Counted from the first letter of the stretch, positions 15,651 through 51,306 are shown. The stretch is DNA of 64,000 nt from Cyanobacteriota bacterium (GCA_046052125.1 JBJOMY010000002.1:32001-96000), one strand, 5' to 3'. Translations and numbers: made by a program. The notes: generated by a model from the sequence alone, not told the origin.

Positions 15651-16377
15651 GCTCCGCGCGGTCGGCCACCACACGCACCTGCTTGCTGGCGGCCACGATC
15701 CCCTTGGGATGCACCAGCAACACCGCCCAGGTTTGGCTGCCGGGCTGGAACGGGGCCTGCACGCTCTTGAACAATCCGCCGCCGCCGAGGGCTTCCAGCT
15801 GCAGGTCGGGCGTCTGCAGACGCAAGAGCTCACCGGGGCTCACCGCCTTGATCGCACCAGCCACCACAGCCCCATCGAGCGGTTCATCGAACACCACGTC
15901 GAGGTCGTAGCGCTGACCGGTGAGGACCGCATCGGGGATCAACAGGCTCACCTTGAGGTCGTTGTCGCCGCTCCGCAACAGCGACGACTCACGGATCAGC
16001 TCCTGGCTGTTGAAGCGCGGACCACTGGCGCCAAGCACCAACTGCTGACGCGCCTCAAAACGGAAGCGGTAGGGGCCCTCCTCACGGCTCCCGGTCACAT
16101 TGATCTCGGTGGTAGCCCGCCCGTCCTTGAGCAGAGGGCCGGGCTGAACGCGCCAACTGGCATCCGGGAACTGCTGGCGGAGCAACAGGCGGCGGCGCTC
16201 CACCTCCGCTGGATCAAGGCCCTGTCCCGGCTCGAGCACCGCATCCAGAGCAGCCGGCGAGCTGCTGTTGAGGGCATCCTGCAGGGCCTGCAGGCTGGGG
16301 GCCGCCCGCAGCGGTGTTGAGCCCATCACCACACCGGCCAGGGCGAGGGCAGCCGGCAGGAGAGGGCGCAACAGCAC
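15640..16377 (-). CDS. Conserved secreted hypothetical protein
   Basis: Signal peptide and host-like codon usage; divergent from murG. Confidence 0.75.
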   Translation of the reverse strand: MLLRPLLPAALALAGVVMGSTPLRAAPSLQALQDALNSSSPAALDAVLEPGQGLDPAEVERRRLLLRQQFPDASWRVQPGPLLKDGRATTEINVTGSREEGPYRFRFEARQQLVLGASGPRFNSQELIRESSLLRSGDNDLKVSLLIPDAVLTGQRYDLDVVFDEPLDGAVVAGAIKAVSPGELLRLQTPDLQLEALGGGGLFKSVQAPFQPGSQTWAVLLVHPKGIVAASKQVRVVADRAELSF

Positions 16378-16431
16378 TGGGGCTCAACCAACACACGGCC
16401 CTTAAGTTAGGCGCGCCTTCCCGCCGCCACC

Positions 16432-17508
16432 ATGTCCCGCCTGTTGATCGCGGCCAGCGGCACCGGCGGGCATCTGTTCCCGGCTATGGCCGTGGCGCAG
16501 GCACTGCCCCCCGACTGGCAGATCCAGTGGCTGGGGGTGCCTGACCGACTGGAGACCGAGCTGGTGCCAGCGGAGATCACCCTGCACACCGTGCAAGCGG
16601 GCGGGCTGCAGGGGCGAGGGCTGCAGAAACTGCTCAACCTGCTGCGACTGCTATGCGCCAGCTGGAGCGTGCGCCAACTGATCCGCCGAGAGCGCATCCA
16701 GGTGGTGTTCAGCACCGGCGGCTACATCGCCGCGCCGGCGATCCTCGCGGCCCGCTGGTGCGGCGTTCCAGTGGTGCTGCACGAATCGAATGGCGTTCCC
16801 GGCAGAGTGACACGTCTGCTCGGCAAGCTCTGTACGCACGTGGCGGTGGGTCTACCCCAAGCGGCCGAGCGGCTCCAGGGCTGCCAGCCGCGGGTCACGG
16901 GAACCCCCGTGCGGCGCGAGTTTTTGCAGCCTGCGGCCCTGCCCGCTTGGGTGCCCGCGGGGCCGGGGCCCTTGCTTTTGGTGATGGGCGGCAGCCAGGG
17001 AGCGGTTGGGCTGAATCGCATGGTGCGACCCCTGTTGCCTCGCTTGCTGAGCGCGGGGTGCCGCGTGGTGCATCTGAGCGGCAGCAACGACCCCGAAAGC
17101 GGCCAACTGCAGCACCCGCACTACGCCGAGCGTCCCTTCAGCGATGAAGTGGCGGGCCTTCTGCAACACGCCGATCTGGTGATCAGTCGCGCCGGGGCCG
17201 GCAGCCTCAGCGAACTAGCGGTGTGCGGCAGCCCCTCAATCCTGGTGCCCTTCCCCCAAGCCGCCGACAAGCATCAAGACGCCAACGCTGGTGCAGCAGC
17301 AGCGCTCGGGGCGGCCGTGATCGTGTGGCAGCACCCGCCTGAGCACCCGGCGCTTGAGCAGGCGATCTGGCGCTTGCTGGGGCCTCGGCTGCGGGGCAGC
17401 GATCCGGCTGTGGATCCACTCCTGGAGCTGCGGCGCGGCATGGAGCGGCTAGAGGTGCGGGATGCGGATCAGCTGTTGGCGGGGTTGCTGATGGAGTTGA
17501 GCTCCTGA
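16432..17508 (+). CDS. murG: UDP-GlcNAc:lipid I N-acetylglucosamine transferase
   Basis: [37 protein letters not shown]. Confidence 0.96.
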
Positions 17509-18575
17509 CGCATTGCTCGGATGATGCGGCGATTGCCAGCGCGGCTCAGGTAGCCGATGCGCAACCAGGTTTCGTCCAATCCTTCAAAGGAGCGGCAATC
17601 GCGCAGGAGGATCCGGTGTCGAGTTTCCAGAGCCTCACGCAACGGCTGGAGAGACACGGGCTCGCCATTGCACTCGCCGCGAATCAAGAGGTAATTCGCC
17701 GCAGACGGCATCGGGATGATGCCGGGCAAGCTCGCGAGCTGGTGCTGCAACCACGCACCCTCGCGGGCCGTCCAGCGCTGCACGCGTTGTATCCAGGCCT
17801 GGTGCCGTTTCGGGCTCCGCAACAAGGCTTGACCCACTGCCGAGGCCACAGCATTCACCGGCCAGGGATCACGCCACTGAGCCCAACGCTGTAGGCGCTC
17901 AGGTTGAGCCACCGCGTAGCCCAGTCGTAATCCGGCGATTCCGTACAGCTTGGTGAGGCTGCGGATCACCACGAGGTTGGGGTGATCCGCCACGAGTGGG
18001 ATCAACGATTGGACTTCGCCGTTGGGCACCAAGGGAAGAAAAGCCTCATCACAAATCACCAAAGCAAAACGGTCCAACAACGGTTCAAGCGACGTACGAC
18101 TCCACAGCTGGCCCGTGGGGTTGTGGGGATTGGTGATCCAGAGCACCCCCGCCTCAGTCGGGCAAGACGGGAAGGACGTCGCGTCATTGCTGGTCCACTG
18201 CAATGGCAGTCGCATAGGAGCGGTATCAGCGCCCCAACAACACAACGCTCGCCGATAGTCAGCGAATCCAGGCTGGGGGAGCACAGAACATCCCATTGCC
18301 TCCGCATCCCGAGCCGCCCAGGTGAAAAGCTCCGCAGCGCCATTACCAGGGAGAACGGTCTCCGGAGCCAATTCATGGGACAGGCCAATGCACTGACGTA
18401 GCCGTTCCATGCCTCGATCGGGATACGCACCCAACGAAGCCCGAAAAGCCTCCGTACGGACAGTCCATGGGAGAGCGAACGGAGCCAAGGAGGCGCTTGC
18501 ATCCAGCAACTGGTGCGGACGGCAGCCGAGCCGAAGGGCGGTGGCTTCAAGATTGCCGCCGTGGGCTTCAAGCAC
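17469..18575 (-). CDS. cobD: PLP-dependent L-threonine-O-3-phosphate decarboxylase (CobD/CobC family)
   Basis: [38 protein letters not shown]. Confidence 0.85.
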
Positions 18576-37100: not shown

Positions 37101-37534
37101 TCAGAGCGGAGGAGCGGGAGCGCTGGGCGGTGGGGCCACCGGCGGCAGCGGTGCAGGGTCGCTTGCGGCGGGCAACTGCGGCTTAGCCGGCGGATCGAGC
37201 TGGGGATCGATCGCATCCGAGCGATTGAGGGCGGCCTCTGCTTGCTTGGCCGCCTCGGCCCGCTGTTTGGCTTCCTGCTGCTGTTGGCGCTCGAGTTCCT
37301 GCAGCTCCAGATCACCGCGGATTTCCGCTTCGGCATCGCCAAAGCGCAGCCGCAAGCTCTCCAGGCTTGTGCCAGGGAACACCTGCACGTCAAACCCCGG
37401 ACCGAACCGGATCAGCTCGGTGACGTTGAGGCTGAGCAGGCGCTGGGTGACGCCGTAAGCCACCCCAAAACAGAGGCCCGCCACCAGGGGACCCTTCCAG
37501 ATCTCGCGCAGAGCCGGTTGCGACACCCGTGCCA
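37101..37534 (-). CDS. Hypothetical membrane protein
   Basis: WKGPLVAGLCFGVAYGVTQRL, FPGTSLESLRLRFG, Pro-rich tail; start uncertain. Confidence 0.7.
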
Positions 37535-37704
37535 TCCAGCGCCTACCAGGGAATCGAACTCTAAGCAGGGCGAACACAGCGCCCAGCAACCGGCAAACCA
37601 TGCAGCTTCTGCATAAACGCGCAGATCCCTTGACCTAACCGTGAACAACACAGACCACAGCCAACCGGAGCACCTACGGTCCAAGGGAGCTGCCGGAGCG
37701 GGTT

Positions 37705-38598
37705 GTGATCTCGGTGGATGGCCTGGCCGCCCTCGATCACCTCATCTGGTTGCGCACCGGTCAGCGCGCGGCAGAGGCGCTCGCTTGCACGCAGCCCACC
37801 GTGAGCCGCAACAGCCGCAAGTGCCTGGATGTGTTCGAACTGGAGCTGGAACGCAGCCGCGGCGAATGGCGACTTCTGGGTGACACCCAGCTGATCAAGC
37901 TTGAGCGCCTTGTGCATCAAAAGCAGCGCTGGGCCCGCAATCTCACACTGCGGCTTGAAGCGCAGCACTGGTCGGCGCCTGGGCTGGATGGACTTGAGCT
38001 GGCGAACTGGCAGCGCGGCAACTTCAACCAACTCGAGTACGAACAGCCGCTCGCGTTGCTCGAAGACGGAGTGATCGATGCCTGGATCTGCTCCGCTCCC
38101 GATGCTCCAGTGCGGCCAGGCCTCACGGGCCTACGCCTCACCACCATGCCGATGCACCTGATGGTGCCCCGCGGCCATCCCCTGGCCGAACGACGCAGCC
38201 CCATCGCCTGGGAGGAGTTGCTGCCTTATCCGGTGCTACCGCTGCCAAGCGGCAGCTTCCCGATCTTTGAAGCGGTGCTGCAGCGCTGCAGCTTGCTGCC
38301 GTGCCCTGAGCGCACTCAAGCCATCAAGGCCTCCGGCTGGTACGGGCAGAGACCCACCGAAGCGATGCTGATCGCCTACTCCTCACCGCTCACGCTGCAG
38401 CTCTATGGCGACGCCTGGGTGCGACTGCCCCAGAAGCTGCCGGTGGAGGTGGGCGATGTGTTGATGGTGCGCGAGGAGTTCAGCGATCACCCACGCACGC
38501 AACAACTGCTGCGCAAGCTTCTCGATCATCTGGCCGAGCTGGCTGCGCCCCACAGCGATGTGATGGTGCATCATGCACCGGCGGCTTACGTCGTGTAA
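37705..38598 (+). CDS. LysR-type transcriptional regulator (divergent)
   Basis: N-terminal HTH (AAEALACTQPTVSR) and substrate-binding motif LMVPRGHPLA. Confidence 0.8.
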   Translation: MISVDGLAALDHLIWLRTGQRAAEALACTQPTVSRNSRKCLDVFELELERSRGEWRLLGDTQLIKLERLVHQKQRWARNLTLRLEAQHWSAPGLDGLELANWQRGNFNQLEYEQPLALLEDGVIDAWICSAPDAPVRPGLTGLRLTTMPMHLMVPRGHPLAERRSPIAWEELLPYPVLPLPSGSFPIFEAVLQRCSLLPCPERTQAIKASGWYGQRPTEAMLIAYSSPLTLQLYGDAWVRLPQKLPVEVGDVLMVREEFSDHPRTQQLLRKLLDHLAELAAPHSDVMVHHAPAAYVV

Positions 38599-38605
38599 TC
38601 GGCGT
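38585..38605. repeat. att-like direct repeat, left copy
   Basis: CTTACGTCGTGTAATCGGCGT, identical to 50076-50096. Confidence 0.9.
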
Positions 38606-38754
38606 CTTGCTCGCCCATCCCTCTGCGCCTGCCGCTGCAGAGCTTTGATGGCTTTACGGATCTCAGCGGCATAGTACCAACCGCTTCTGGACCACTGCTT
38701 GAGGATCCACCCACCTCACTGGAGGCAATTGGTCCTCTGATGTCAGGTCAGTGC

Positions 38755-39054
38755 TCAGTAGTTGTCCCCGTACTTGAGTCCAGAGGCGGCATCCATCAGT
38801 TCCACCGTGGTCTGATGCCCCTGCGCCACAGTCACCTCGTGCTGGATGCCGATGTCCCGCAGTGCCTTGATGTCGAACTCAGGCGCGGTGATCCAACTGA
38901 AACCCTTACCAAAGGTGTTGTCGGGATTCACCACATACCAATGGCAGGCAGTGTCGGGGACGGCGACAGAGCATTTGGTCCAGTCGTTATCCCACTGAGG
39001 CACCTGAACGAAGGAGAGGGCGGCGAATAGGAAACCAAACAGACTGGAGAACAT
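38755..39054 (-). CDS. Small secreted hypothetical protein
   Basis: Hydrophobic N-terminus, QVPQWDNDWTKC...CHWYV. Confidence 0.7.
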   Translation of the reverse strand: MFSSLFGFLFAALSFVQVPQWDNDWTKCSVAVPDTACHWYVVNPDNTFGKGFSWITAPEFDIKALRDIGIQHEVTVAQGHQTTVELMDAASGLKYGDNY

Positions 39055-39255
39055 GCCGCTTTTACATTTCTCAATATCCTAGGCGGTATCTGGGTTTTCC
39101 TTCGCCAATGGGTTGAACGGGCGTGTATCGGGCATCCCGATTTGCTTCCTCAGGATGGTTCTTTTGAGGGCGTCCCTGGAAGCATTGCCTGAGCGGTAAC
39201 TGCAGTGTCTGGCACTGGATTCTGGCTTGAGGACACTCGATGTACTGTGCGCTTG

Positions 39256-39497
39256 ATGGCAAAGCAAGTCCGTCTGACCCTCGCCAAGGCAAATCTGCGC
39301 CGTGCTGAGGCAGGGGAGAAATCCATCACCATGAACTCGTTGGCGACTCAGGCAGGGGTGGCGGCAACAACCATCACTCGCTTGGCAAGAACCGACGACA
39401 AGGCGGCATCAGCACTGTCACTAGACCTGGCATCCAAGATTGGACGGTGCTGGATTGTGAGATTGAAGATCTTCTGGAAGTAGTGGTAGCGGATTAG
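39256..39497 (+). pseudogene. Cro/C1-type HTH regulator with an apparent frameshift near 39440
   Basis: SLATQAGVAATTITRLAR...LSLDLASKI, then the family-like tail (TVLDCEIEDLLEVVVAD*) continues in another frame. Confidence 0.65.
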
Positions 39498-40414
39498 TTC
39501 TCCAACTCCAGGAAGAAATCCTCATCCATTCTCCGGATCACGAATGTCTGCTTTGTTGAAACGCCGATGCCGTGTTTGAGCATCAGTTCAGACATTCTCT
39601 TACCATCAACAAGAATGATTCTGCGGTCAGTCAGTGTCTTGACGTATTCCTGGGCGGGTTGAGCAAATGTCGAGGTGGTCATAATCACACCTTTGGAAGC
39701 ACCAACCCCTGCAAGCGCACCCACAAAACCTTGAATAACGGGTCTCCCAACTGACCCCTCCCATCGCTTTGCCTGGATATAAATGCGATCAAGACCAAGG
39801 TGATCTTGGTTTACGACGCCATCGACGCCACCATCTGCACCACGGGCAACGCCTTGAACGTCTTCCATTGACCCGCCATATCCCATACCAACAAGCAGGC
39901 GCAACACCAACTGCTCAAATCCCTCAGGGGGCAACTGCTTGACTCGATCCAAGACCTCATCTTGAAGTTCACGTTGGATTCGCCTCACGCCCTTCTCAAT
40001 CTGTTCTTCTGGTGTCAGATCATCATCAATATCGCCTGATTCAATCAGATCTTGCTTGCCATTTCTGGTAGTCGAGATGAAGTCATTGAACTGCTCGTAA
40101 GACCGAAGGAACTCAGCGTCGATTGCGGCAGGCGGATTTGAGAGTAGATCTTTGCCGCTTTGACTGATGACATAAGTTGCTCGACGTGGGCGTTCGATCA
40201 ATCCTGCCTTAAACAGATAGGTTCGTGCCCACCCCATTCGATTATCAAAGGCAGTTTGTGTTCCACTGGGCAGGCGTTGACTCAACGCTTCAGCGCTCAG
40301 ACCAAGGTGATCTGCGACGGCATCCCGCATCTGATTGGTTGTGAGTTCGCTGCCACCACCCATCACCTTGAGGAGAGGAAGCATCAGAGTGTGATATTGA
40401 GGAATGCTGTTCAT
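39494..40414 (-). CDS. mrr: Mrr-type (type IV) restriction endonuclease
   Basis: Mrr N-domain (IPQYHTLMLPLL, FDNRMGWARTYLFKAGLI) and catalytic DGGVDG...YIQAKRW; ATGA overlap with the hsdR stop. Confidence 0.93.
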   Translation of the reverse strand: MNSIPQYHTLMLPLLKVMGGGSELTTNQMRDAVADHLGLSAEALSQRLPSGTQTAFDNRMGWARTYLFKAGLIERPRRATYVISQSGKDLLSNPPAAIDAEFLRSYEQFNDFISTTRNGKQDLIESGDIDDDLTPEEQIEKGVRRIQRELQDEVLDRVKQLPPEGFEQLVLRLLVGMGYGGSMEDVQGVARGADGGVDGVVNQDHLGLDRIYIQAKRWEGSVGRPVIQGFVGALAGVGASKGVIMTTSTFAQPAQEYVKTLTDRRIILVDGKRMSELMLKHGIGVSTKQTFVIRRMDEDFFLELEN

Positions 40415-43400
40415 TCGCCGACGCCTCCCAACTGACCGCCCATATTGCTTGTAAGTGCATGAGCGACAACCGCCTGAATCTTCTTGCCAAGATCCTCTCT
40501 CGACCACTCCTCAGAAATCATCTCGGTCTGCTGGAGCACCAACTCAATCGCTGCTGCTTCCTGATCAGGCGGATACTTGTAGCGTTTGAGCAGTGCCTTG
40601 ATCATCGTTCGCAGTCGTGCCCGAACGTTTTCCTTGTATTGCCAGTCGATGCTGAGGTTGCCTCTGAGTTTTTCTGCCAGTTCCCTTGCCATCTTCATCA
40701 GCACCTCATCACCCATCAGATCGTGTGCTGACTGGTTGTTCGCCAGGGCGTCGTAGAAGGCGACTTCGGCAACCGACAATCCCATTGCTTCGACTTTCTC
40801 CGCCTCATCACGGAACTGCTTTGCCATGGCAATCAGTTCCTCGATCACTTGTGCCGCCTCGATGGAGCGGTTGGCGTATTTGTTGAGAGACGCCTGGAGC
40901 AGTTCGCTGAACCGCTTCTGCTTGACCACGTTGGTCTTGAAGCGTGTCTGAACTTCCTCTGCCAGCAACCTCTGGAGCAGTTCAACCGCCAAGTTCTTCT
41001 GAGGGATCTTGCTGACTTCTGCCAGGAACTGATCCGACAGGATGCTGATGTCTGGTTTTTCAAGACCTGCCACCTTGAAGACATCAGTGATTCCATCTGC
41101 CACCAATGACTCAGAGAGCAGTTGGCGCAACTGAAAATCAACATTTTTAGGAGCAGATCCGTCGCCCCCTGCGTCATCGCCTTTGACTAGTGGTGCTCGG
41201 ATCGCCTGAAGGAAGGTCACCTCATCATTCAGTGCCATCGCTTCATCAGTCGTGCCGCACAAAGCAAATGCCTTAGTCATCGCCAGCACGGTGTCGCAAT
41301 ATCGCTTCTTCCCATCGGGCATCGCCAGGATGTGATCCAGGCAGTTGGGCAGCAGTGCCATTGCTGTCTTGGGATCCCTGAATCCACTCCAGTCGATGGG
41401 ATGCAGGAGGTCATGGGCAACCCGGAGTTTCTCCTTGAGGATCCTCAGCGCCTCACTGTTATCGATGGTGGGAGCACCCTTGCCCTTGGCAGCAGTGTAG
41501 GTCGCCAGTGCTTCTTTGAGTTGGGGGGCGATGCCGATGTAATCGACCACCAGACCGCCTGGTTTGTCTTTGAACACCCTGTTCACTCGGGCAATCGCCT
41601 GCGCCAGGTTTGCCCCCTTCATCGGTTTATCCACATACATCGTCGCCATACAGGGAGCGTCAAACCCCGTCAACCACATATCCCGCACCAGCACGATCTT
41701 GAGAGGATCAGCGGGATCCTTGAACCGTTTCTCCAGATCCTTCTTCTGCTGCTTGCTGGTGTGGTGAGGTTGGAGGTGGGATTCGTCTGATGCCGATGCC
41801 GTCATCACCACCTTGATGGCACCCTTCAAATGGTCGTCGTCGTGCCAGTTAGGGCGTAGGGCAACGATGGCGTCATAGAGGCGAGCACAGATATCCCTGC
41901 TCATCGCCACCACCATCGCTTTGCCTGGTTGGGTGCGTGAGCGTTGCTCGTAATGGGCAACCAGATCCGCTGCCACTTGCTTCAGGCGTGGTTCAGCACC
42001 CACGAGTGCTTCCAGTGCTGCCCACCTGCTCTTTGCCCGCTCAGCAGCAGGGATGTCGTCTTCATCAGCGAACAGGTCATCGACCTGTTCATCCACCTGC
42101 GGCAGCAGCGGTTCTTTGAGCGCCAGTTTTGCCAGGCGTGACTCGTAGTAGATCGGCACCGTGGCACCGTCTTCCACTGCCTGCTGGATGTCGTAGACGG
42201 AGACGTAGTGCCCGAAGACCGCCTGGGTGTCACGGTCGTCTTGGGAGATGGGCGTTCCCGTGAAGGCAAGGAAGGTCGCCTGGGGTAGAGCATCCCGCAA
42301 CGCCTTTGCTAACCCGTATTTGATCTCCCCTGTCTTGGTGTCGAAGCGACCCTTGAACCCGTATTGGGTGCGGTGTGCCTCGTCGCAGATCACCACGATG
42401 TTGTGGCGTTCGGTCAGGGCAGGGAACTTGTCTTCATCAGGTTCGGTAGCGAACTTCTGAATGGTGGTGAAGATGATGCCGCCACTGGGTCGGTTGGCGA
42501 GCAGATCCCTGAGTTCCTGGCGACTCTCTGCCTGCTTGGGGGATTCGCCCAGCAGGTCACCCGCCCCAGCAAAGACCCCGAACAGTTGCCCATCCAGGTC
42601 TTGACGGTCGGTGACCATCACCAGGGTGGGGTTCTCCAGGCGTGGATCGGTAAGCAACTTGCCCGCCAGACACGCCATCTCGATGCTCTTGCCAGCGCCC
42701 TGGGTGTGCCAGACCACCCCACCCTTCTTGTCACCATCAGGTCTGCTTGCTTCCACCACCCGCTCCACTGCTGCCCTGACGGCGTGGAACTGGTGGTAAG
42801 CAGCGATCTTCTTGATGATCTGCCCGTCTTCCTCAAACAGGCAGAAGGAGCGCACGAACTCCAGCAGTCGCCCCTGATCGAAGATGCCCCGCACCAGGGT
42901 CTCCAGATCACGGTGAGCACCCAGCGGATCGAGGTGGTTCTCGCCGTCGATGGTGCGCCAACGTTGGAACCGCTCCCGATCAGCACTCAGCGACCCCAAC
43001 CGTGCCTGGATACCATCGCTGATCACCAGCAGCACATTGGGCGTGAACAGGTCGGGGATGTCTTGCTTATAGGTCTGGAGTTGGTTGAACGCTGCCCAGA
43101 TGTCTGCCTTCTCATCGGCAGGGTTCTTCAGTTCGATCACCGCCAGCGGCAGACCGTTCACGTAGATCACGACATCAGGGCGGCGGTTGTGTTTGGTGCC
43201 CTGGATCGCCAACTGGTTCACCACCAACCAATCGTTGGAAGCAGGGTCATCGAATCCGATCACCTTGAGACGGATGCCCACCTGCTGGTTCCCATCCATA
43301 TAGGTGATGGGTAAACCCTGGGTCATCCAACGGTGGAAGTTGCGGTTGGATGCCAGCAGACCAGGCACGTTGGGGTTCGCCAGTTGGAGCACCGCTGATT

Positions 43401-43602
43401 CGATGGTGCTTGCTGGAACTTCAGGGTTGAGGCGTTGGAGTGCTGAGCGCAGACGCCCCGTGAGGATGACTTGCCTGAAGTCAGTGCGTTCTGGTGAGGC
43501 GCCGTCGCTGTCGAGTTGGGGCGCGAAGACGTGGGTGTATCCCAGTTCCTGGAACCACTCAAGGCACTGCTGCTCCAGATGGTCTTCTGTGATCAAGGCC
43601 AT
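40411..43602 (-). CDS. hsdR: Type I restriction endonuclease subunit R
   Basis: RRPDVV...IELKNP nuclease, WHTQGAGKS, DEAH, FTGTP, MWLTGFDAP, QAIARVNR; start MALITED at 43602. Confidence 0.96.
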   Translation of the reverse strand: MALITEDHLEQQCLEWFQELGYTHVFAPQLDSDGASPERTDFRQVILTGRLRSALQRLNPEVPASTIESAVLQLANPNVPGLLASNRNFHRWMTQGLPITYMDGNQQVGIRLKVIGFDDPASNDWLVVNQLAIQGTKHNRRPDVVIYVNGLPLAVIELKNPADEKADIWAAFNQLQTYKQDIPDLFTPNVLLVISDGIQARLGSLSADRERFQRWRTIDGENHLDPLGAHRDLETLVRGIFDQGRLLEFVRSFCLFEEDGQIIKKIAAYHQFHAVRAAVERVVEASRPDGDKKGGVVWHTQGAGKSIEMACLAGKLLTDPRLENPTLVMVTDRQDLDGQLFGVFAGAGDLLGESPKQAESRQELRDLLANRPSGGIIFTTIQKFATEPDEDKFPALTERHNIVVICDEAHRTQYGFKGRFDTKTGEIKYGLAKALRDALPQATFLAFTGTPISQDDRDTQAVFGHYVSVYDIQQAVEDGATVPIYYESRLAKLALKEPLLPQVDEQVDDLFADEDDIPAAERAKSRWAALEALVGAEPRLKQVAADLVAHYEQRSRTQPGKAMVVAMSRDICARLYDAIVALRPNWHDDDHLKGAIKVVMTASASDESHLQPHHTSKQQKKDLEKRFKDPADPLKIVLVRDMWLTGFDAPCMATMYVDKPMKGANLAQAIARVNRVFKDKPGGLVVDYIGIAPQLKEALATYTAAKGKGAPTIDNSEALRILKEKLRVAHDLLHPIDWSGFRDPKTAMALLPNCLDHILAMPDGKKRYCDTVLAMTKAFALCGTTDEAMALNDEVTFLQAIRAPLVKGDDAGGDGSAPKNVDFQLRQLLSESLVADGITDVFKVAGLEKPDISILSDQFLAEVSKIPQKNLAVELLQRLLAEEVQTRFKTNVVKQKRFSELLQASLNKYANRSIEAAQVIEELIAMAKQFRDEAEKVEAMGLSVAEVAFYDALANNQSAHDLMGDEVLMKMARELAEKLRGNLSIDWQYKENVRARLRTMIKALLKRYKYPPDQEAAAIELVLQQTEMISEEWSREDLGKKIQAVVAHALTSNMGGQLGGVGE

Positions 43603-43788
43603 GGGGTGAAGCCAGAGATTTTGCCAGTGGTCGATGGCTTGGCCCTGCCTCTTGCCACCTGCCACGCGGAGAGGCCAGACGAGCCTGGGATGCCTGGCTC
43701 AGGGAAAGCCTTAAATACGAGACCGACTGGGGCCCAGGCGGTTTGGGGGATTGGGCGGCGGCGGCGGTGGGTTGCCATTAAAAAGGCC

Positions 43789-45198
43789 TCATGCCCAGAA
43801 AGGGAGGTAGCGGGCGAACTTCCGTGAGGCGCCGACGCTGCCGTCCGGCTTGATCAGATTGGCCTCAATGGTGGCTGAAATGACCTGGGACGTCACGGCG
43901 GCCTTCTCCTCTCCAAGCCGAAATCGCTCTCTAAGCGTCTGATTAGACATCCGCTCGCCCATCACCCACCGGAGAGCGCAGTGTTGATAACAGGCTCGAA
44001 CCCGGTTGTTCCGGTCCATTTGGTCAAATGGAAGGGGGCCGAAGATCGTGACAATCGTGCGGCGGAAACCTGCGTGAAAATCTGGAGCAGGGAGTTGATA
44101 CACCTCAGCGGCATCAACCACCCGATCAATACCGCTGCTCTTCTCCTCGCAGATGCCGAAGCGACGCATCAGATCAGCAAGATGTTCATTGCGAGATTGA
44201 TAGCCATCGATGAAGCGCTCTACAGGCACAAGGGGTTCGCCCGGATTGGAGATCTCAACGCGATTGGCGAAGATGTCGATCATGACAGAAGCCCCAGCGA
44301 CAACGAAGTCCTGATGAATTAGGGCATTGGCCAAAAGCTCACGAATCACAACATCTGGAACGAGCTTAACCTCTTTGCGCAAGGCGCGCTCAATGATTTC
44401 ATTCTGCGGCAGTTGTGCATAGATGTAGTTCACAAATTCCTGAAAGCCAACGGCGTAACCGCGATCAAAAACGTGATCCAGCTTTGTTTGCAACTTGGAT
44501 GGCCCTGAGTAGACGACAACGCGCGCAGCTTTACGTGATAGATCAGGGAAATCACTCAGTCGGCGAGCCAGTAAAAGCGCACCAAGACGTCGAATGGTGT
44601 AGCTGCTGCCTTCATAATCGACAAGCTTTTCTGCCGTGAGCCTGTCAAGAACGCCTACGCGATCTGTGGGATAGGGCAACCGCAGAAGCTCAAAAAAGGT
44701 TTGTGTATCGAGCAGCTCTACAACCTCCTGAGCATCCAGACCTCGTCGGGAAGGCTCTTCGAGCCAATCAGGTTGACCTTCAGAAAAAATGCGCCTCAGC
44801 TGGTCTTCGCTCATCGGCACCAACGCTTCGCCTGCGCGCATCAAATATTTGCCTTCCAGGTTGTAAGCCGTTCCGCGGGGACGTGATGGAATGTGAAAAA
44901 CAAGAACACGTCCATCTGGATGAACAACGGCCTCGATATCGACTCTGAATCCAACGGCCTTGAACAGTTTTTCTGCTGCTGCAACCGTGTCTGGGAAGGC
45001 TTGAGTGCTGACAACCTGGCGTGGAGGTTCATCTGCGATTCCAAGAAGAAGCACACCGCCACCCTCATTGGCCAGGGCCACGCAGTATTCATTCAGTTTG
45101 CGCGTGTCAAACTGATGCTTCGCTTCCTTGAATTCCAACCGTTGGTGCTCAGAGGCCGCTTGCCGCCAGAGATCAATCTGCTGTGGGGTCGTGCTCAT
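43789..45198 (-). CDS. Schlafen/AlbA_2-domain protein with a HATPase-like middle region and C-terminal wHTH-like region
   Basis: SEHQRLEFKEA...VALANEGGGVLLLGIAD; RELLANALIHQD, EISNPG, SRNEHLADLMRRFGICEEKSSG. Confidence 0.85.
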   Translation of the reverse strand: MSTTPQQIDLWRQAASEHQRLEFKEAKHQFDTRKLNEYCVALANEGGGVLLLGIADEPPRQVVSTQAFPDTVAAAEKLFKAVGFRVDIEAVVHPDGRVLVFHIPSRPRGTAYNLEGKYLMRAGEALVPMSEDQLRRIFSEGQPDWLEEPSRRGLDAQEVVELLDTQTFFELLRLPYPTDRVGVLDRLTAEKLVDYEGSSYTIRRLGALLLARRLSDFPDLSRKAARVVVYSGPSKLQTKLDHVFDRGYAVGFQEFVNYIYAQLPQNEIIERALRKEVKLVPDVVIRELLANALIHQDFVVAGASVMIDIFANRVEISNPGEPLVPVERFIDGYQSRNEHLADLMRRFGICEEKSSGIDRVVDAAEVYQLPAPDFHAGFRRTIVTIFGPLPFDQMDRNNRVRACYQHCALRWVMGERMSNQTLRERFRLGEEKAAVTSQVISATIEANLIKPDGSVGASRKFARYLPFWA

Positions 45199-46499
45199 GA
45201 CAGCATCCCCTCAAGCATCTTCTCGGCATCAGGGATTCGGATTTGACCTGAGATGAGTTTGGAAAGGAGGGTATCCCTGGTTGTTGCGAGATCTTTGGAT
45301 TGCTTCCGTAAACCAAAGACTCGATCCAGAAGAGGGGCAAATGCTGAATCCATCGCAGCAAGAAGAGATGGTGTGGGGATCAGCGCCTTAGCCTCACTTA
45401 GATGATGCCTTTGGATGTGCCCCATCGTTGTCGCTTTCCCCTGGGCGATTTCCTGAAACTCAGGCAGATGGTGCTTGACCCACTGAAGGAAGAACCACTT
45501 GTCGTAGGTCTTGGATGTGACCTTGAAGAGGTGCTGGTTCAGAGCACCATCACCTCCACACCACATATCAACAGCAAGAGAACCAGACCAGGAGAACAAC
45601 ACATCACCATCCCTAACTACATAGTCGGATGGAACTGCTGTCGAGCACCTGTCTGCCCCAATGGAATCGCCCTTCTTTAGTTGAGCGATCTTGATCACTG
45701 GAAGCGTTGGGTTGCCGTCTTCAGGCGGGAACTTCTGTAGGGCAAGACCATTGAGGAAATGAGCGACCTCATCCAATGACTTCACTTTCCACCCACTAGG
45801 AATCTCGCCGTGTTCCGAATCCTCAAATGAATCTTGGAACAGGTCGCTGATTTCTGCTGGCAATCCAGTAGGGCGACCTTCTGCCTTCGCTCTGACTGGA
45901 TCGAAATCCACAAACCACGACTTGAAGAGCGCCTTTGCCATCGCCTCCAAGGTTTCGTTGGTCTTGCGGTTCAGTTCGATCTTGTCATCAAGGGTGCCGA
46001 GGATATGAGCGATTGCTTTCTGTTCATTGAAGGGTGGCAAGTCAATCTCAACCTGCTTCAGTTCCCTGACTGAAAGGTTGCCCTGAACGGAACCATTATC
46101 CAGTTCTCTGGCAATGGTCTTCCCAGTTGATCCGCTCAGGATGTAATAAAGAAAATCACGGGATACGTTTTGCTTTGGTCGAATGATGACAAGAGACGAT
46201 GCTATCGCCCCTTTCTGAATGCCCTTCGCAAGACCGATCTTTCCAAGAGATCCACGAAGGCAAAACAAGATATCGCCCTTCTCAATCTTTCCATTACCAA
46301 GCCGATCGTATGCCCCTTGCGAAATAAAGGTTGCCCCCGACAGGTCTATGCGCCTACCGTCAAGGTCAGAGGCGCTGACAAACGGTATTCCGCTGGCGAC
46401 ATAATCAGAAGAGGATGGGTAGTTCTTCCCCCTGTCGCCATTGATGAAATCAGCAGCGTTGTCGAGAGTAGAAGTCGACCAACTAAAATCAGAACTCAT
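45195..46499 (-). CDS. hsdS: Type I restriction-modification specificity subunit
   Basis: Two TRDs with conserved spacers ([46 protein letters not shown]). Confidence 0.95.
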
Positions 46500-48375
46500 A
46501 TCCCAACCTCCTCAGATTCTCGGCAATCTGCTGATCCAACTTCGCCCCCTCTTCCTGCTGCTGCTTGAGCAGAGCAGTGAGGCGCTTCATCTTCTGATCA
46601 AAGGGTTCGTCGTCGTCATCCTGATCTGCCGCTCCCACATAGCGACCAGGTGTGAGCACAAAACCATTCTTCTCAATCTCATCTAACTTGGCGCTGTAGC
46701 AGAATCCAGCAACATCCTCATAGACATCAGATACCTCGCCATCACCACGCCAGGCGTGAACAGCACCAGCAATCTTCTCAATATCCTCATCCGTTAGCAC
46801 CCGTTCAACCCTGGTCTTCATCGTGCCCATCTGACGGGCATCAATAAAAAGCGTCTCTCCACGACGATCACGACCACGCAGGGTCTTGTCATTCGTCAAG
46901 AACCACAAGCAAACAGGAATCTGAGTGTTGAGGAACAGTTGACCAGGCAGTGCCACCATCACCTCAACCACATCACCACGCACCATCGCTTCACGGATCT
47001 GCCCCTCACCGCTCTGGTTGGAACTCATCGATCCATTTGCCAGCACTACACCTGCTTCACCACCAGGGCGTAGTTTCCAGAGCATATGTTGCAACCACGC
47101 ATAGTTCGCATTGCCTACAGGTGGTCGCCCGTAGACCCAGCGTGGATCACTTTCGTATTTCTCCCCGCCCCAATCCGAAATGTTGAACGGTGGATTAGCA
47201 AGGATGTAGTCGAACTTCTGATCAGGGAACTGATCTCTGGCAAAGGTGTCAGCAGGTTCCTGACCCAGATCCGCAGCAAACCCACGGATCGCCAGGTTCA
47301 TCGCTGCCAACCTCCAGGTGGTTGGGTTGCTCTCCTGCCCATAGATCGAAGCGTCATCACGCTTGCCCCCGTGCGCCTGGATGAACTTTTCGCTTTGAAC
47401 GAACATTCCACCTGAACCGCAGCAGGGGTCATAGATCCGACCCTTGTGCGGTGCCAGCACAGCAACCAGCGTTTTGACGACGTGAGCAGGCGTATAGAAC
47501 TGACCTCCCTTCTTGCCTTCTGCGCTGGCGAACTGACCGAGGAAATATTCGTAGACCTCCCCCAGCACATCACCCGAACGCTGGTCGTCAGCAAATCCAA
47601 TGGTGGAAATCAGATCTACCAGTTCACCCAGACGCCCTGGTTCCAGTTGAGCGGCACCAAACCGCTTATCCAACTTGCCCCGCAGGGTCGGGTTCTCGTT
47701 CTCGATGGCGACCAGTGCCCGATCAATCAGTTGACCGATATCAGGTTGCTTTGCCCGTGCCCGTAGCGACTCCCAGCGAGCATCAGCAGGCACCCAAAAC
47801 ACGTTCTCTTGGGTGTAGTAGTCACGATCCTCCAGTGCTGCTTCGTGATCGGCAGGGTCATCACCGATGTAGAAGTCAGAGTCAGGCGAACTGACCATTG
47901 CCAGCACCTTCGCCCGATGCTCGGCAAACGTGTCTGAGATGTATTTCAGGAAGATCAGACCCAGAACCAGATGCTTGTATTCCGCCGCATCCATCTGGGC
48001 ACGGAGTTTGTCGGCGCTCGCCCAGAGAACTGCCTTGAAATCCTTGGCGGGTGCTTCCTTCTTCGCTCGACCTCGACCGTTACCTGCTGCTGGTGCTGAG
48101 GGTGCCTCGTAGCGACTGCCGCCAGGGATCCCATCTGCCAACCCAATGGCACCCCCACGCCCCCGACCCTTGCGGATTATTCCCAGGGCAAGCGCCTTTT
48201 CCTTGACTGCCTCGTACTCCTCTTCGCTGATCTGGCGCTCTGCTGCTCGACTCAGCGCCTCCCGTGCCGACTGGTTCCCGATGGTGCTGCCATCAGGGGG
48301 GAGCACCTCCAGGAGCAGGTCACTCAGTTCTGCTTCCCCTGCGTCGGGTGTGGTGAAAGTCGCTGAGTCGGTCAC
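46489..48375 (-). CDS. hsdM: Type I N6-adenine methyltransferase with an ~110-aa N-terminal extension
   Basis: [24 protein letters not shown] (motif I), ANPPF (motif IV), LTPGRYVG. Confidence 0.95.
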
Positions 48376-48493
48376 TGGGACTGGATGCTTCCGCCCATTT
48401 TCGCCGCTGCGCCTTGGTTTTGCCCGTTATGCGCTATTCGCATAGACCAACGGCGCCTGTGGTGGGAACTCTGAGAGCAGTCGCACTGATCCG

Positions 48494-48712
48494 ATGACCA
48501 CACTCACCACTGGTGCCCTGGCAACCGAGACCCTGATCGCCTCGCTCCTTGCCCTGGAAGACCTGACCAACCGCCTGACGGTGCTAACCCTCAATGCCTC
48601 TGGATGCCCTGAGCAATCCCCCAGGGTGCGGGCGCTGCTGGCAGACCTGGCGGATGCCCTGAAGCGATGTGAGGAGGATCTGGGGACCTATGCCGCAGCA
48701 AACGACACCTGA
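48494..48712 (+). CDS. Small helical hypothetical protein
   Basis: 72-aa Leu/Ala-rich ORF divergent from hsdM. Confidence 0.6.
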   Translation: MTTLTTGALATETLIASLLALEDLTNRLTVLTLNASGCPEQSPRVRALLADLADALKRCEEDLGTYAAANDT

Positions 48713-48716
48713 CGGT

Positions 48717-48971
48717 TCAACGCCTCTCGGTGATGGGTTCCCATTCCGCCTTAATCCCGATGTCGGGTGCTCCTGACTCTTTGTTGGTCTTCTCCATCCA
48801 CTGTGACCTCACGATCCTGTGCCCCTTAAGCACCTGCCGCATTCCTGCTGGTGCTTTGGCGGCGGCGCAGGAGGTGCCACCGTCCCTACAGGCGCTGGAT
48901 GCTGAGCGGTCCCTCTTGCTCCCACACCCCGCCAGCAGCAGCACCCCAAGGAACAGGGCAACCCGCTTCAT
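48717..48971 (-). CDS. Putative lipoprotein
   Basis: MKRVALFLGVLLLAGC lipobox; ATG overlaps the upstream stop (ATGA). Confidence 0.6.
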   Translation of the reverse strand: MKRVALFLGVLLLAGCGSKRDRSASSACRDGGTSCAAAKAPAGMRQVLKGHRIVRSQWMEKTNKESGAPDIGIKAEWEPITERR

Positions 48972-49150
48972 CGCTTGTGAGCAGTCTTTGCCCAGATCCG
49001 CTCCAGGGTCTTGCGGAACTCGCCCTCGCTCAAGGGTCGTGCCAGATCTCGCTTCCTGACGGTGCTCCAGATCCACCAGACCTGAAGACCGCCAAAGGCA
49101 AGGGCGAACAGACCCAGTTGGAGGTACCCAGAGTTCAGATGCTCCATCAC
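48968..49150 (-). CDS. Small membrane protein with LERIWAK motif
   Basis: One TM helix then FRKTLERIWAK. Confidence 0.7.
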   Translation of the reverse strand: MMEHLNSGYLQLGLFALAFGGLQVWWIWSTVRKRDLARPLSEGEFRKTLERIWAKTAHKR

Positions 49151-49323
49151 GCCGTCTGCTGGTCCTTTGCCCAGATCCGTTCCAAGGACTGCCTGACCTG
49201 ATCGGTTCTGGAGGTAGCGCCCAGCACTCGCTTGCGGAACAGGGTGGTCAGGCGCCAGAACTTGACTCCAGCAGCAAGGGCAAAGACCGCCCAGGGCACC
49301 AGCATCCAGAGCGGGTTGCTCAT
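49147..49323 (-). CDS. Small membrane protein with LERIWAK motif
   Basis: MSNPLWMLVPWAVFALAAG...VRQSLERIWAK. Confidence 0.7.
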   Translation of the reverse strand: MSNPLWMLVPWAVFALAAGVKFWRLTTLFRKRVLGATSRTDQVRQSLERIWAKDQQTA

Positions 49324-49535
49324 CCCCTGTTCAACGCCCACCGCAGTGCCCCCAGACCGATCGAGAGTCCCACCATCGTGTTCCAGGCGATTGCCCTGCG
49401 GGTGCTGAGGCGCAGCAGGAAGGGCGGCAGGGTCTGATGGCGACTCAGCAGCAGGGCGGTGCTGATCAGGAGGTAGGCAGCGGGGATGCCCAGTGCCAGC
49501 AACAACTCAGTCGTCACAGCGGGGTCTGCTGCCAC
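49320..49535 (-). CDS. Small two-TM membrane protein
   Basis: Two hydrophobic segments; stop overlaps the next start. Confidence 0.6.
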   Translation of the reverse strand: MAADPAVTTELLLALGIPAAYLLISTALLLSRHQTLPPFLLRLSTRRAIAWNTMVGLSIGLGALRWALNRG

Positions 49536-49581
49536 TGGTGAAACGGTAGTGACGCTCCAGGGAGGCGCCCGATCGGAACCC

Positions 49582-49620
49582 TTGACCCCACCACCGCACC
49601 ACAGGTAGTACAGGTGTACC
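49582..49620 (+). promoter_or_regulatory. Promoter with a cyanobacterial LexA box over the -10 element
   Basis: -35-like TTGACC (49582-49587); AGTACAGGTGTACC (49607-49620) fits RGTAC-N3-DGTWCB. Confidence 0.7.
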
Positions 49621-49632
49621 CGCCCGCCTCAG

Positions 49633-49899
49633 ATGCCTGCTGCTCGTCCCGTCGCCTCTGGCGCCCCTGCTGAAGAGTGGGACTACCTGGATGTGGATGT
49701 CCTTCGCCCTGCCCGTTCAGGTGCCGTCTGTATCACCTGCCAGCACTTCCGTTACGAGGTCGGCAGGCACTGCGTCACGGTGCTGACCTGCCCGATCCAT
49801 CAGGGTCTTATCCCCCAGGGTGAGCACCTGACTAAGCGGTGCGCTCAGTGGGTTGCTCGGCGGGAGGTGGCGGTTGGGTGGCGCCCTGAGACGGGGTGA
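49633..49899 (+). CDS. Small Cys/His-rich putative metal-binding protein
   Basis: CITCQHF...CPIHQGLIPQGEHLTKRC. Confidence 0.75.
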   Translation: MPAARPVASGAPAEEWDYLDVDVLRPARSGAVCITCQHFRYEVGRHCVTVLTCPIHQGLIPQGEHLTKRCAQWVARREVAVGWRPETG

Positions 49900-50075
49900 A
49901 ACCGCTTTGCTTACGGAGAAATCATTTGCCCCGCAATGGGTTTGCGGGAATGACCTCGACCTGAACGTAAGCACTACCCTGATCGACACTGGGTTTTACG
50001 TCTGTCTTCTCCGTAAGCGTTGCGTAAGCGTCGATCTAAGGTCCCCCAGATCCCTTGCGGCAGAACGGGTTTGCC

Positions 50076-50096
50076 CTTACGTCGTGTAATCGGCGT
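50076..50096. repeat. att-like direct repeat, right copy (3' end of argJ)
   Basis: CTTACGTCGTGTAATCGGCGT encodes ...ADYTT* of argJ on the - strand. Confidence 0.9.
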
Positions 50097-51306
50097 TGAT
50101 GCGCACGTATTGATCCGACAGGTCACATCCCCAGGCGCGACCCTGCCCTGAGCCTTCACCCACCTGCAGGCGGATCACCACGGTGTCGTCACGGAGGTAG
50201 GCGCCGGCAGCGCGATCGCGCATGTAGGCAGAGGCGGCAGAGCGATCAAAGGCCAGCGGCTGACCGGCTGCCATCAGCTGGTGATCGCCGAGCCACAGGG
50301 CCACGGCGTCGGGATCGAAGGGCACACCGGCCCGGCCGGCAGCCGCCACGATGCGCCCCCAGTTGGGATCGCGGCCGTGCACGGCACATTTCACCAGCGA
50401 CGAACCGCAGATGGTGCGGGCGATGGCGCGGGCACCGGCATCGTCGGCTGCCCCCTCCACCAGCACCTCGATCAAGCAGGTGGCACCTTCGCCGTCGCGG
50501 GCGATCGCCTTGGCCAGATGTTGCGACACCGCCGTCAGGCCAACCTCCAACGCATCGAAGTGCTCGGGGCTCAGGGGCTCACCGGCTGCAAACGCCAGGT
50601 ACGTGTCGTTGGTGCTGGTGTCGCCGTCCACCGTGATCGCATTGAAGGAGCGATCCACCGCCCGCTTCACCATCGCCTGCCACGCATCCGCCGGCACGCC
50701 GGCATCGCAGCTGAGGTAGCCGAGCATCGTGGCCATGTTGGGGTGAATCATTCCCGACCCCTTGGCCATCCCGCCGATGCGCACGCGGCGGCCGCCCAGC
50801 TCCGCCTCCAGGGCGATCTGTTTGTCGATCAGATCGGTGGTGAGGATCGCGGTAGCCGCTGCCGCACCGCCCTCGGGGCTGAGGGCCTCGGCCAGTGGGT
50901 CGAGCCCCGCAAGGAGGGTGTCCATGGGGATCGGCACGCCGATCACGCCGGTGGAGCAAATCAACACTTCATCCGGGGCCAAACCCAGGTGATCCGCCAT
51001 GGCCTGGGTGGCGCGCAGGCTGTCGATCAGGCCGCGATCACCCGTGCAGGCATTGGCCTGCCCTGAGTTGCTCAGCACCGCACGGGCGCGGCCGCCGCTG
51101 GCCTGCAGGCGCTCAGCACAGAGGTCGACGCATGCGGCCCGCACCAGTGAGGTGGTGAAGGTGCCAGCGCAGACAGAACCTTCCGGGGCCAACAGCAGTG
51201 AAAGATCAGGCTTGCCGGAGGCCTTGAGGCCAGCGGTGATGCCAGCCGCCAGGAAGCCTTCAGGAGCCGTGACGCCTCCGGGAATCGACTGCCAAGAGTG
51301 GGGCAC
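50077..51306 (-). CDS. argJ: Glutamate N-acetyltransferase / ornithine acetyltransferase
   Basis: SNSGQANACTG, AKGSGMIHPNMATML, DGDTSTND, DGEGAT, NADYTT. Confidence 0.97.
   Translation of the reverse strand: MPHSWQSIPGGVTAPEGFLAAGITAGLKASGKPDLSLLLAPEGSVCAGTFTTSLVRAACVDLCAERLQASGGRARAVLSNSGQANACTGDRGLIDSLRATQAMADHLGLAPDEVLICSTGVIGVPIPMDTLLAGLDPLAEALSPEGGAAAATAILTTDLIDKQIALEAELGGRRVRIGGMAKGSGMIHPNMATMLGYLSCDAGVPADAWQAMVKRAVDRSFNAITVDGDTSTNDTYLAFAAGEPLSPEHFDALEVGLTAVSQHLAKAIARDGEGATCLIEVLVEGAADDAGARAIARTICGSSLVKCAVHGRDPNWGRIVAAAGRAGVPFDPDAVALWLGDHQLMAAGQPLAFDRSAASAYMRDRAAGAYLRDDTVVIRLQVGEGSGQGRAWGCDLSDQYVRINADYTT

Follow-up and report, generated by a model that had tools for sequence, protein, structure and literature searches.

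An integrase-less defense island at the 3' end of argJ in a picocyanobacterium, probably the decayed remainder of an argJ-targeting integrative element

INTRODUCTION

How does an island with no recognizable integrase come to lie precisely at the junction of two convergent genes and leave both of them intact? The question is raised by a 64,000-nucleotide stretch of a Cyanobacteriota bacterium genome (GCA_046052125.1, JBJOMY010000002.1:32001-96000), called the window throughout and corresponding to contig C2:32001-96000 of a genome that is 99.96% complete. In the window, 11.5 kb of DNA encoding restriction systems separates a LysR-type regulator gene from argJ and is enclosed by two copies of a 21-bp core. 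A preliminary description, made from the window alone, had proposed that the core is an attachment (att) site in protein-coding DNA, used by an element that either is mobilized in trans or has lost its integrase. We find it very probable that the island is what decay has left of a site-specific integrative element that targets argJ, and that it is now most likely a fixed defense island. Integrase-bearing members of the same element family occupy the same site in related genomes, which are designated here by G numbers, with individual loci given L numbers.

RESULTS

A chromosomal target sequence repeated at both ends of the island

The two core copies are exact and lie where the preliminary description had placed them, both on the + strand (Table 1). 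No third copy was found anywhere in the window with up to three mismatches allowed, 0 of 100 shuffled sequences yielded a match, and a search of the 2,640,321-base genome allowing up to two mismatches returned the same two sites only. The G+C content is 0.50 to 0.63 between the repeats and 0.64 to 0.69 in the flanks, and the drop coincides with the repeats. The core carries the ends of two genes, as had been noted before: the complement of positions 2 to 4 is the argJ stop codon, and positions 1 to 14 hold the last four codons and the stop of the LysR gene, the stop itself being positions 12 to 14. The direct repeats at the two ends are thus chromosomal target sequence. The two copies are not equivalent, as the core weight matrix scored 29.9 for the LysR-side copy versus 44.0 for the argJ-side copy, in which positions 2 to 22 encode the ArgJ tail NADYTT*. 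There is no tRNA gene in the window or in loci L007, L009, and L010; the target is argJ.

Sixty relatives, 36 of them of the same genus, were searched for the corresponding site, and eight congeners were found to carry both argJ and an ortholog of the window LysR gene (70 to 78% identity), adjoining argJ, on one contig. Three of these eight (G020, G029, and G027) have an empty site with a single exact core, at which LysR, ending in ...YVV*, and ArgJ, ending in ...NADYTT*, overlap tail to tail. This is the joined allele that had been predicted from the window. The left flank aligns to the empty-site genomes as far as the core and the right flank from the core onward, and homology breaks exactly at the repeats, so that the borders of the variable region are the repeats themselves. 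The remaining five congeners hold inserts of 0.83 kb (G021 and G011), 2.9 kb (G008), 5.2 kb (G017), and 17 kb (G007), bordered by core copies with one to four mismatches, except in G008, which has the argJ-side core only. The expectation of other cargo at this site was thus borne out in these five genomes, and also in further ones. In G007 there are three cores, with a 0.85-kb remnant standing in tandem beside a 16-kb island.

The distance from argJ to the nearby ABC1 kinase gene, calculated by hand from coordinates in the 29 congeners with both genes on one contig, is 0.82 to 1.1 kb in 14, which have no LysR gene, 1.4 kb in 1, 1.8 to 2.0 kb in 4, 2.5 to 2.7 kb in 4, and 4.8 to 18.9 kb in 6, the window included. 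These varied spacings mark the site as a hotspot of repeated insertion. LysR, too, was added to the locus: in the 14 congeners without it (G026 and G062 among them), a 166-amino-acid (aa) open reading frame (ORF), at 37101-37601 in the window, starts no more than about 40 bp past argJ with no LysR gene in between. We considered LysR as old cargo of the same site, which would call for a core remnant upstream of LysR, and no such remnant was found.

Several observations on individual relatives belong here. The mini-remnant of 0.83 to 0.85 kb between LysR and the next core in G021, G011, and G007 is conserved and stands between a degenerate core, with positions 15 to 21 mutated, and a good core; it carries a homolog of the 64-aa hydrophobic ORF of the window, an ORF that is found just outside attL in G114, from another genus. 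This remnant has the appearance of an integration that took place long ago and has since eroded. A small serine resolvase (PF00239, 1.4e-32) is encoded at the argJ-side end of the G017 island (L009 5766-6344). The public record of the G007 contig names an acetic acid bacterium, whereas its gene content and its position within the genome collection assign it to the picocyanobacterial genus of the window, and the record is probably mislabeled. Finally, one contig from an independent freshwater sample (run X3) lies on the argJ-side core (50076) and is preceded by eight loose letters that equal the bases of the window LysR gene just before the core; since this is a single contig with eight letters only, we keep its reading as an empty site as a hint. 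In the same run, contigs identical to the island are covered less deeply than a LysR contig of about 2% divergence.

A family of integrases dedicated to the argJ site

In the G017 and G007 islands, the gene directly inside the LysR-side core encodes a tyrosine recombinase. The G017 protein (432 aa) matches PF00589 at 2e-12, and the G007 protein (475 aa) matches the SAM-like family PF13102 at 4e-6, its PF00589 match of 7.6e-5 being under the cut-off of that family; the SAM-like match, in the N-terminal domain, is confined to the G007 protein. PHROGs labels both proteins as integrases, and their homology runs from end to end (34% identity, E of 1e-82). With a profile built from the two, 10 of the 45 genomes in the genus were positive at E ≤ 1e-10 and 7 at E ≤ 1e-150, namely, G007, G017, G065, G010, G013, G023, and G024. 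All seven strong matches are located in the interval from the ABC1 gene to argJ: linkage to both genes is seen for four, and the other three are on ABC1-bearing contigs that end inside or just past the element. The integrase genes of G023 (L018) and G024 (L019) each contain one in-frame TAA; with both cores and both arms still in place, these elements are partway through decay.

The integrases extend well beyond the genus. In a scan of 401 genomes of the host family, 35 had an integrase match at E ≤ 1e-30, and these fell in 13 of 64 genera. Among the 21 matches at E ≤ 1e-130, 20 loci were fetched, and every one of them has an argJ-tail core 153 to 230 bp upstream of the integrase gene on the same strand; at 10 loci with weaker or partial matches, the core was present in 3 and absent in 7. 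Of 10 genomes from other genera, 9 have the integrase 1.9 to 27 kb past the argJ 3' end, convergent with argJ and with the insert bounded by a core on either side; in the tenth (G202), integrase and argJ are on separate contigs. The integrase ends of the G065 and G007 elements are 89.6% identical, and the adjoining host LysR regions are 74.3% identical. Because the elements are more alike than the host DNA beside them, the comparison points to a family that is or was mobile.

Putative arm sites at fixed distances from the core

The DNA inward of the cores contains repeated 7-mers, and each integrase subgroup has its own: GTAAGCG in G007, G065, G114, and the window; GTGACAC in G017, G010, and G013; and GTTACCC in G023 and G024. 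We refer to these as dialects. In all eight argJ-side arms scanned, covering all three dialects, a pair of such sites stands at -63 and -52 from the core start, and on the integrase side pairs occur at +81/+92 and +131/+142 or nearby (about +80 to +160). These GTAAGCR-type 7-mers are putative integrase arm sites, to judge from their sequence and spacing. In the window, four of the eight GTAAGCR matches fall within the 123 bp from 49908 to 50030, against 5.2 matches expected over the whole 64 kb, and their four offsets are those of G007 and G065. The G114 arm has three sites, with the distal - strand site at -167 and none at -109, and G008 has a single GTAAGCR copy left. The LysR side of the window island is different in that no GTAAGCR occurs within 260 bp of that core, so that the two-sided arrangement of arms is lost.

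How both genes survive insertion

Whether the site is empty or occupied, the ArgJ tail reads QYVRINADYTT* in 27 of 27 argJ copies (18 from the genus and 9 from other genera), and core positions 1 to 14 at occupied sites differ from the host version by synonymous changes and in the choice of stop codon. The protein tail is uniform despite these differences in DNA, and the elements thus bring their own replacement of the last argJ codons. When pairs of island ends were compared by eye, the identical block included TCGGCGTT or its local variant (core positions 15 to 22) in 14 of 15 pairs, which makes this block most likely the crossover region. The earlier statement that integration leaves both genes intact therefore holds, and it can be given a mechanism for each gene: argJ is kept whole by the copy of its last codons that the element brings along, and LysR because its stop codon (positions 12 to 14) lies to the left of the inferred crossover.

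A deletion at the LysR-side end

The window island and the 16-kb G007 island are colinear in four blocks: 38608-38691 corresponds to 11273-11356 (87%), 38755-39484 to 13109-13850 (86%), 49164-49496 to 16267-16883, and 49606-50100 to 17901-18386 (80%). The first block, which is fused to the LysR-side core, begins 16 codons from the stop of a G007 ORF of 127 aa (L007:8294-8677), about 9 kb from the G007 attL. In intact elements, the LysR-side core is followed by TGAT and then by the arm. In the window, identity ends at position 21, and after two bases the sequence continues in the interior of the G007 ORF. That identity stops at position 21 and that the junction falls inside a gene both point to deletion of the integrase end, and the simplest reading of this junction is that a deletion took the integrase and its arm, together with the right edge of the core and about 9 kb of neighboring DNA. 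The G008 island is a second integrase-less derivative of the same backbone. Positions 15 to 21 of the LysR-side core, which are under no coding constraint, are still perfect in the window and are mutated in the G021, G011, and G007 remnants. Because these positions remain intact here and have changed in the older remnants, the decay of the window island looks recent.

Gene content of the island

All large genes of the island are on the - strand (Table 1). HsdR, HsdM, and HsdS of the type I restriction-modification (R-M) system are each full length as judged by profile matches, and their activity is a prediction from these matches. As listed, the Mrr ORF begins at a GTG and has 97 bp (40411-40507) in common with the end of hsdR; its true start is probably a later ATG (...MNSIPQYH...). 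The modules that flank the R-M/Mrr block (39494-48400) are near each other in G008 and 2.4 kb apart in G007; because they lie so close together there, the block is cargo specific to the window island.

The 92-aa ORF with the weak helix-turn-helix (HTH) match is a backbone gene found also in the G007, G008, and G114 islands (70 to 87% at the amino acid level by tblastn). The 99-aa protein belongs to a family that phages also carry, with matches to phrog_1187 (2e-32) and phrog_14182. The G007 island has homologs of the hydrophobic ORFs, as do the 0.83-kb remnants (G021, G011, and G007), and in G114 such homologs lie immediately beyond attL. The 60- and 64-aa paralogs (48968-49341) share an ...ERIWAK... 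motif and contain a 35-nucleotide direct repeat spaced 179 bp apart. The 88-aa Cys-rich ORF had no match in Pfam, PHROGs, PADLOC, or NCBIfam, and in the Atlas it fell only in unnamed cyanobacterial clusters; as a guess, it could be a directionality factor or a regulator of its element dialect.

None of the island ORFs matched a tyrosine or serine recombinase family or a transposase, in agreement with the earlier view of the island as integrase-less. Likewise, tblastn of two cognate integrases and the resolvase from the islands of relatives against the window gave nothing better than an E of 1.2.

Table 1. Coordinates of the island, its ends, and the flanking host genes, numbered from the first nucleotide of the window
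Feature	Position	Strand	Matches and remarks
LysR-type regulator gene (left host flank)	37705-38598	+	PF03466, 4.9e-11; C terminus ...AYVV*
LysR-side core (attL), shortened	38585-38605	+	Family-core identity ends at position 21
Probable deletion scar, 84-bp fragment fused directly to core	38608-38691	-	87% identical to inside of the G007 127-aa ORF
99-aa small protein, phrog_1187 family	38755-39054	-	G007 island, 99% aa; G008 island, 86% aa
92-aa ORF, weak Cro/C1-like HTH	39205-39483	+	HTH_26, E = 0.059, under family cut-off
Mrr-like type IV methyl-directed restriction enzyme	39494-40507	-	Mrr_cat, 2e-33; Mrr_N, 4.5e-29; PADLOC mREase_IV, 1.6e-78
HsdR, type I restriction subunit	40411-43665	-	PADLOC REase_I, 1156 bits, profile positions 3-1026 of 1029; TIGR00348, 1.8e-180
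AlbA_2/HATPase_c_4 protein inside hsd operon	43789-45198	-	PF13749, 8.6e-20; PF04326, 1.3e-11; phrog_12156, 1.6e-28
HsdS specificity subunit	45195-46499	-	PF01420, two stretches; PADLOC Specificity_I, 1.7e-113
HsdM methyltransferase	46489-48375	-	N6_Mtase, 3e-104; HsdM_N, 3e-23; PADLOC MTase_I, 2e-189
Three small hydrophobic ORFs (60, 64, and 71 aa)	48968-49535	-	First two are tandem paralogs
88-aa Cys-rich ORF, backbone gene beside argJ-side arm	49633-49899	+	Position conserved in G007 (90% aa) and G114 (77% aa)
argJ-side arm (putative sites)	49908-50030		Four GTAAGCR: -168 (- strand), -109, -63, and -52 from core start
argJ-side core (attR), intact	50076-50096	+	Family core runs on as TGAT to 50100
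argJ (right host flank, intact)	50077-51306	-	PF01960, 4e-139; NF003802, 2e-149; ends ...NADYTT*

Can the island still move?

The genome-wide searches suggested in the preliminary description gave only the two known cores and no cognate integrase: neither the profile scan nor the family scan found a member of the argJ-site integrase family in the window genome. That genome has two PF00589 ORFs, both on contig C3 (L011 712-1980, 422 aa, and L012 865-2103, 412 aa) and neither adjacent to a tRNA gene. They were rejected as cognate enzymes, having only the catalytic motif in common with the argJ family. No PF00239 protein was found in the window genome by a search that was positive in 12 of 14 control genomes.

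A query spanning the left junction (38540-39500) had matches in 139 of the 401 family genomes; most were to the widespread 99-aa gene, which occurs in many unrelated places. The other matches listed were to the HTH module, to an internal G007 segment, and to an 88-bp piece in G014. Among the matches listed, the left junction itself was in none of the 400 other family genomes, and spread of the integrase-less island as a unit was rejected for that reason. In assembled contigs of four of the 24 public runs, no joint of 38605 to 50076 was among those listed, the parts that are uncovered being uninformative.

DISCUSSION

The observations can be assembled into an account whose order of events, like the immobility at its end, we infer from the comparison with relatives. 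An element encoding a tyrosine integrase of about 430 to 480 aa just inside its far core, with a core of about 25 bp, would have inserted at the last codons of argJ. It would have supplied a synonymous argJ tail, so that argJ was rebuilt on insertion, and its integrase would have used paired 7-bp arm sites at fixed distances on either side of the core. Strand exchange within TCGGCGTT, to the right of the LysR stop, would have left LysR untouched. After integration, a deletion would have removed the right edge of the LysR-side core, the arm on that side, the integrase, and about 9 kb. What remains would be the argJ-side arm, still intact, with some backbone genes and a defense cargo of 9 kb comprising the type I R-M system with its AlbA_2/HATPase_c_4 gene and Mrr, and the present state would be that of a fixed defense island that is no longer mobile.

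Several points weigh against this account, or at least against parts of it. The position of the crossover rests on comparison of attL with attR, and in one pair of island ends, that of G142, the two differ at core position 20. The perfect state of positions 15 to 21 on the LysR side leaves room for some residual recombination. The left endpoint of the deletion falls at the edge of the crossover block, with seven of its eight bases kept, which would be a coincidence for a random deletion. Lastly, the core weight matrix was built from sites of the genus and is independent for other genera only. The position of the endpoint could be explained by a recombinase-mediated event or by a different ancestral element att site (attP), and we found no support for either: the G007 position homologous to the left junction of the window has no core-like sequence, with weight-matrix scores of -18 to -67. 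A recombinase-mediated deletion through a secondary site and, separately, an eroded middle core were also considered and were dropped when a 25-column matrix run over all the fetched islands found the known sites only.

The preliminary description had left two alternatives standing, loss of the integrase and mobilization in trans. The first gained support, as sister islands have a dedicated integrase gene beside the LysR-side core, where the window has a deletion scar. The second would make the island a working integrase-less element, comparable to a satellite or a cis-mobilizable element (CIME), that is excised and reinserted through its two 21-bp cores by the integrase of a related element. 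The repeats are exact, the argJ-side arm is intact with all four of its sites and the neighboring backbone gene, integrase-bearing kin circulate in close relatives (G065, whose ABC1 kinase is 99% identical, has one at the site), and tandem arrays do occur, as the three cores of G007 attest. We nevertheless regard mobilization in trans as unlikely. The LysR-side site is without the last base of the inferred overlap, without TGAT, and without any arm sites; no cognate integrase was found in the window genome; and among the matches listed the left junction is in no other of the 400 family genomes. In addition, that junction cuts through a gene, as decay would do and as a designed end would not.

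It is also conceivable that the present content arrived by homologous recombination, through argJ, through the LysR/ABC1 flanks, or through the island backbone, and that the repeat records an older event. This would suit the R-M block, which is flanked by modules that lie near each other in G008 and are separated by only 2.4 kb in G007, has a G+C content unlike that of the backbone, and has hsdR and hsdM pieces of 90 to 95% likeness in contigs from other freshwater runs. On the other hand, the att architecture could not have arisen without a site-specific insertion, none of the islands fetched was a donor carrying this cargo, and the proposal concerns the arrival of the cargo and not the nature of the structure; as an explanation of the island we consider it very improbable. 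That the repeat is a chance match or the target-site duplication of a transposon can be set aside as having a negligible probability, given that 0 of 100 shuffles matched, that no transposase was found, that the same core borders integrase-bearing islands in many genomes, and that 21 bases far exceeds the usual target duplications.

A decayed argJ-site element thus remains the favored reading of the window island, and it can be set beside known systems. Lambda-type att sites combine core-type and arm-type sites for Int. The argJ sites are lambda-like in having a short core, a central block of identity, and arm motifs at fixed spacing, in pairs 11 bp apart, on both sides; compared with lambda, the argJ arm sites are putative, read from sequence, and no integration host factor (IHF) or Xis sites were identified. 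CIMEs are the cis-mobilizable leftovers of integrative and conjugative or integrative and mobilizable elements after deletion of the recombination module, known from Streptococcus thermophilus. The window island is CIME-like in that it lacks an integrase, is bounded by att-derived repeats, and derives by deletion from an integrase-bearing relative, with which it is colinear (G007), and tandem accretion, also CIME-like, is seen in the congener G007. A CIME, however, keeps two usable att sites, whereas the LysR-side site of the window is cut after position 21 and has no arm, and, unlike in CIMEs, no conjugation genes are involved at the argJ site.

Insertion into a protein-coding gene through the classical core-plus-arms scheme of tyrosine integrases is a known kind of mechanism. 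The loss of an integrase through decay has ample precedent as well, in CIMEs and in degenerate tycheposons. Lambdoid phage 21 and e14 insert in icd. Integrases specific for dusA are a further case of a protein-gene target (PMC4482086), and SGI1 inserts at the 3' end of trmE (PMC8409611). The argJ family resembles these elements in having a dedicated integrase clade, one conserved protein gene as target, a copy of the gene end, and direct repeats, and it differs from them in target gene, host phylum, and integrase lineage. It is also unlike them in that one core serves at least three arm-site dialects.

Closest in host range are the tycheposons, which use seven tRNA and transfer-messenger RNA (tmRNA) genes in Prochlorococcus (10.1101/2020.12.28.424599); tycheposon-like insertions at tRNA-Phe have been described in marine Synechococcus, where hsdMSR operons and TnpR-like resolvases were reported as insertion cargo (PMC8995045). 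From what these accounts describe, tycheposons and argJ elements have in common picocyanobacterial hosts, a tyrosine recombinase at the att-proximal end, cargo islands, tandem integrations, and degenerate remnants that accrete by the site, and the resolvase of the G017 island parallels the TnpR-like genes of the Synechococcus insertions. Unlike tycheposons, the argJ elements use the 3' end of a protein gene and not a tRNA or tmRNA gene, and the window island, unlike them again, is without a recombinase at the proximal end. The word argJ has 0 occurrences in the main text of either paper (10.1101/2020.12.28.424599 and PMC8995045), and we found no literature linking argJ to integration or genomic islands in cyanobacteria or Synechococcus. 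For the argJ-targeting integrative element family, then, we found no earlier description, although its mechanism is of a known kind.

Taken alone, the window island is an ordinary decayed element, and the argJ integrase family with its three dialects is of greater interest. A bolder proposal, which we put forward tentatively and with more doubt than confidence, is that the argJ-tail integrases are an undescribed class targeting a protein gene, widespread in picocyanobacteria (13 of the 64 genera sampled) as a non-tRNA counterpart of tycheposons. In this proposal, a shared core and a fixed arm geometry would be read by at least three co-diverged combinations of integrase and arm dialect, and the window island would be a member disabled not long ago, which an incoming element of the GTAAGCG dialect might pick up again through accretion.

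Gene flow in picocyanobacteria is tied to tRNA-linked islands in the literature, as far as the accounts cited here represent it, and the end of argJ is an equally specific landing pad in many genera. One site displays empty, intact, tandem, pseudogenized-integrase, and integrase-less states, a natural series in which the passage from mobile element to fixed defense island can be studied. With one core and three arm dialects at identical spacing, the family would offer a compact system for the co-evolution of integrases and their arm sites, and the argJ core is a candidate tool for site-specific integration in cyanobacteria that are hard to engineer.

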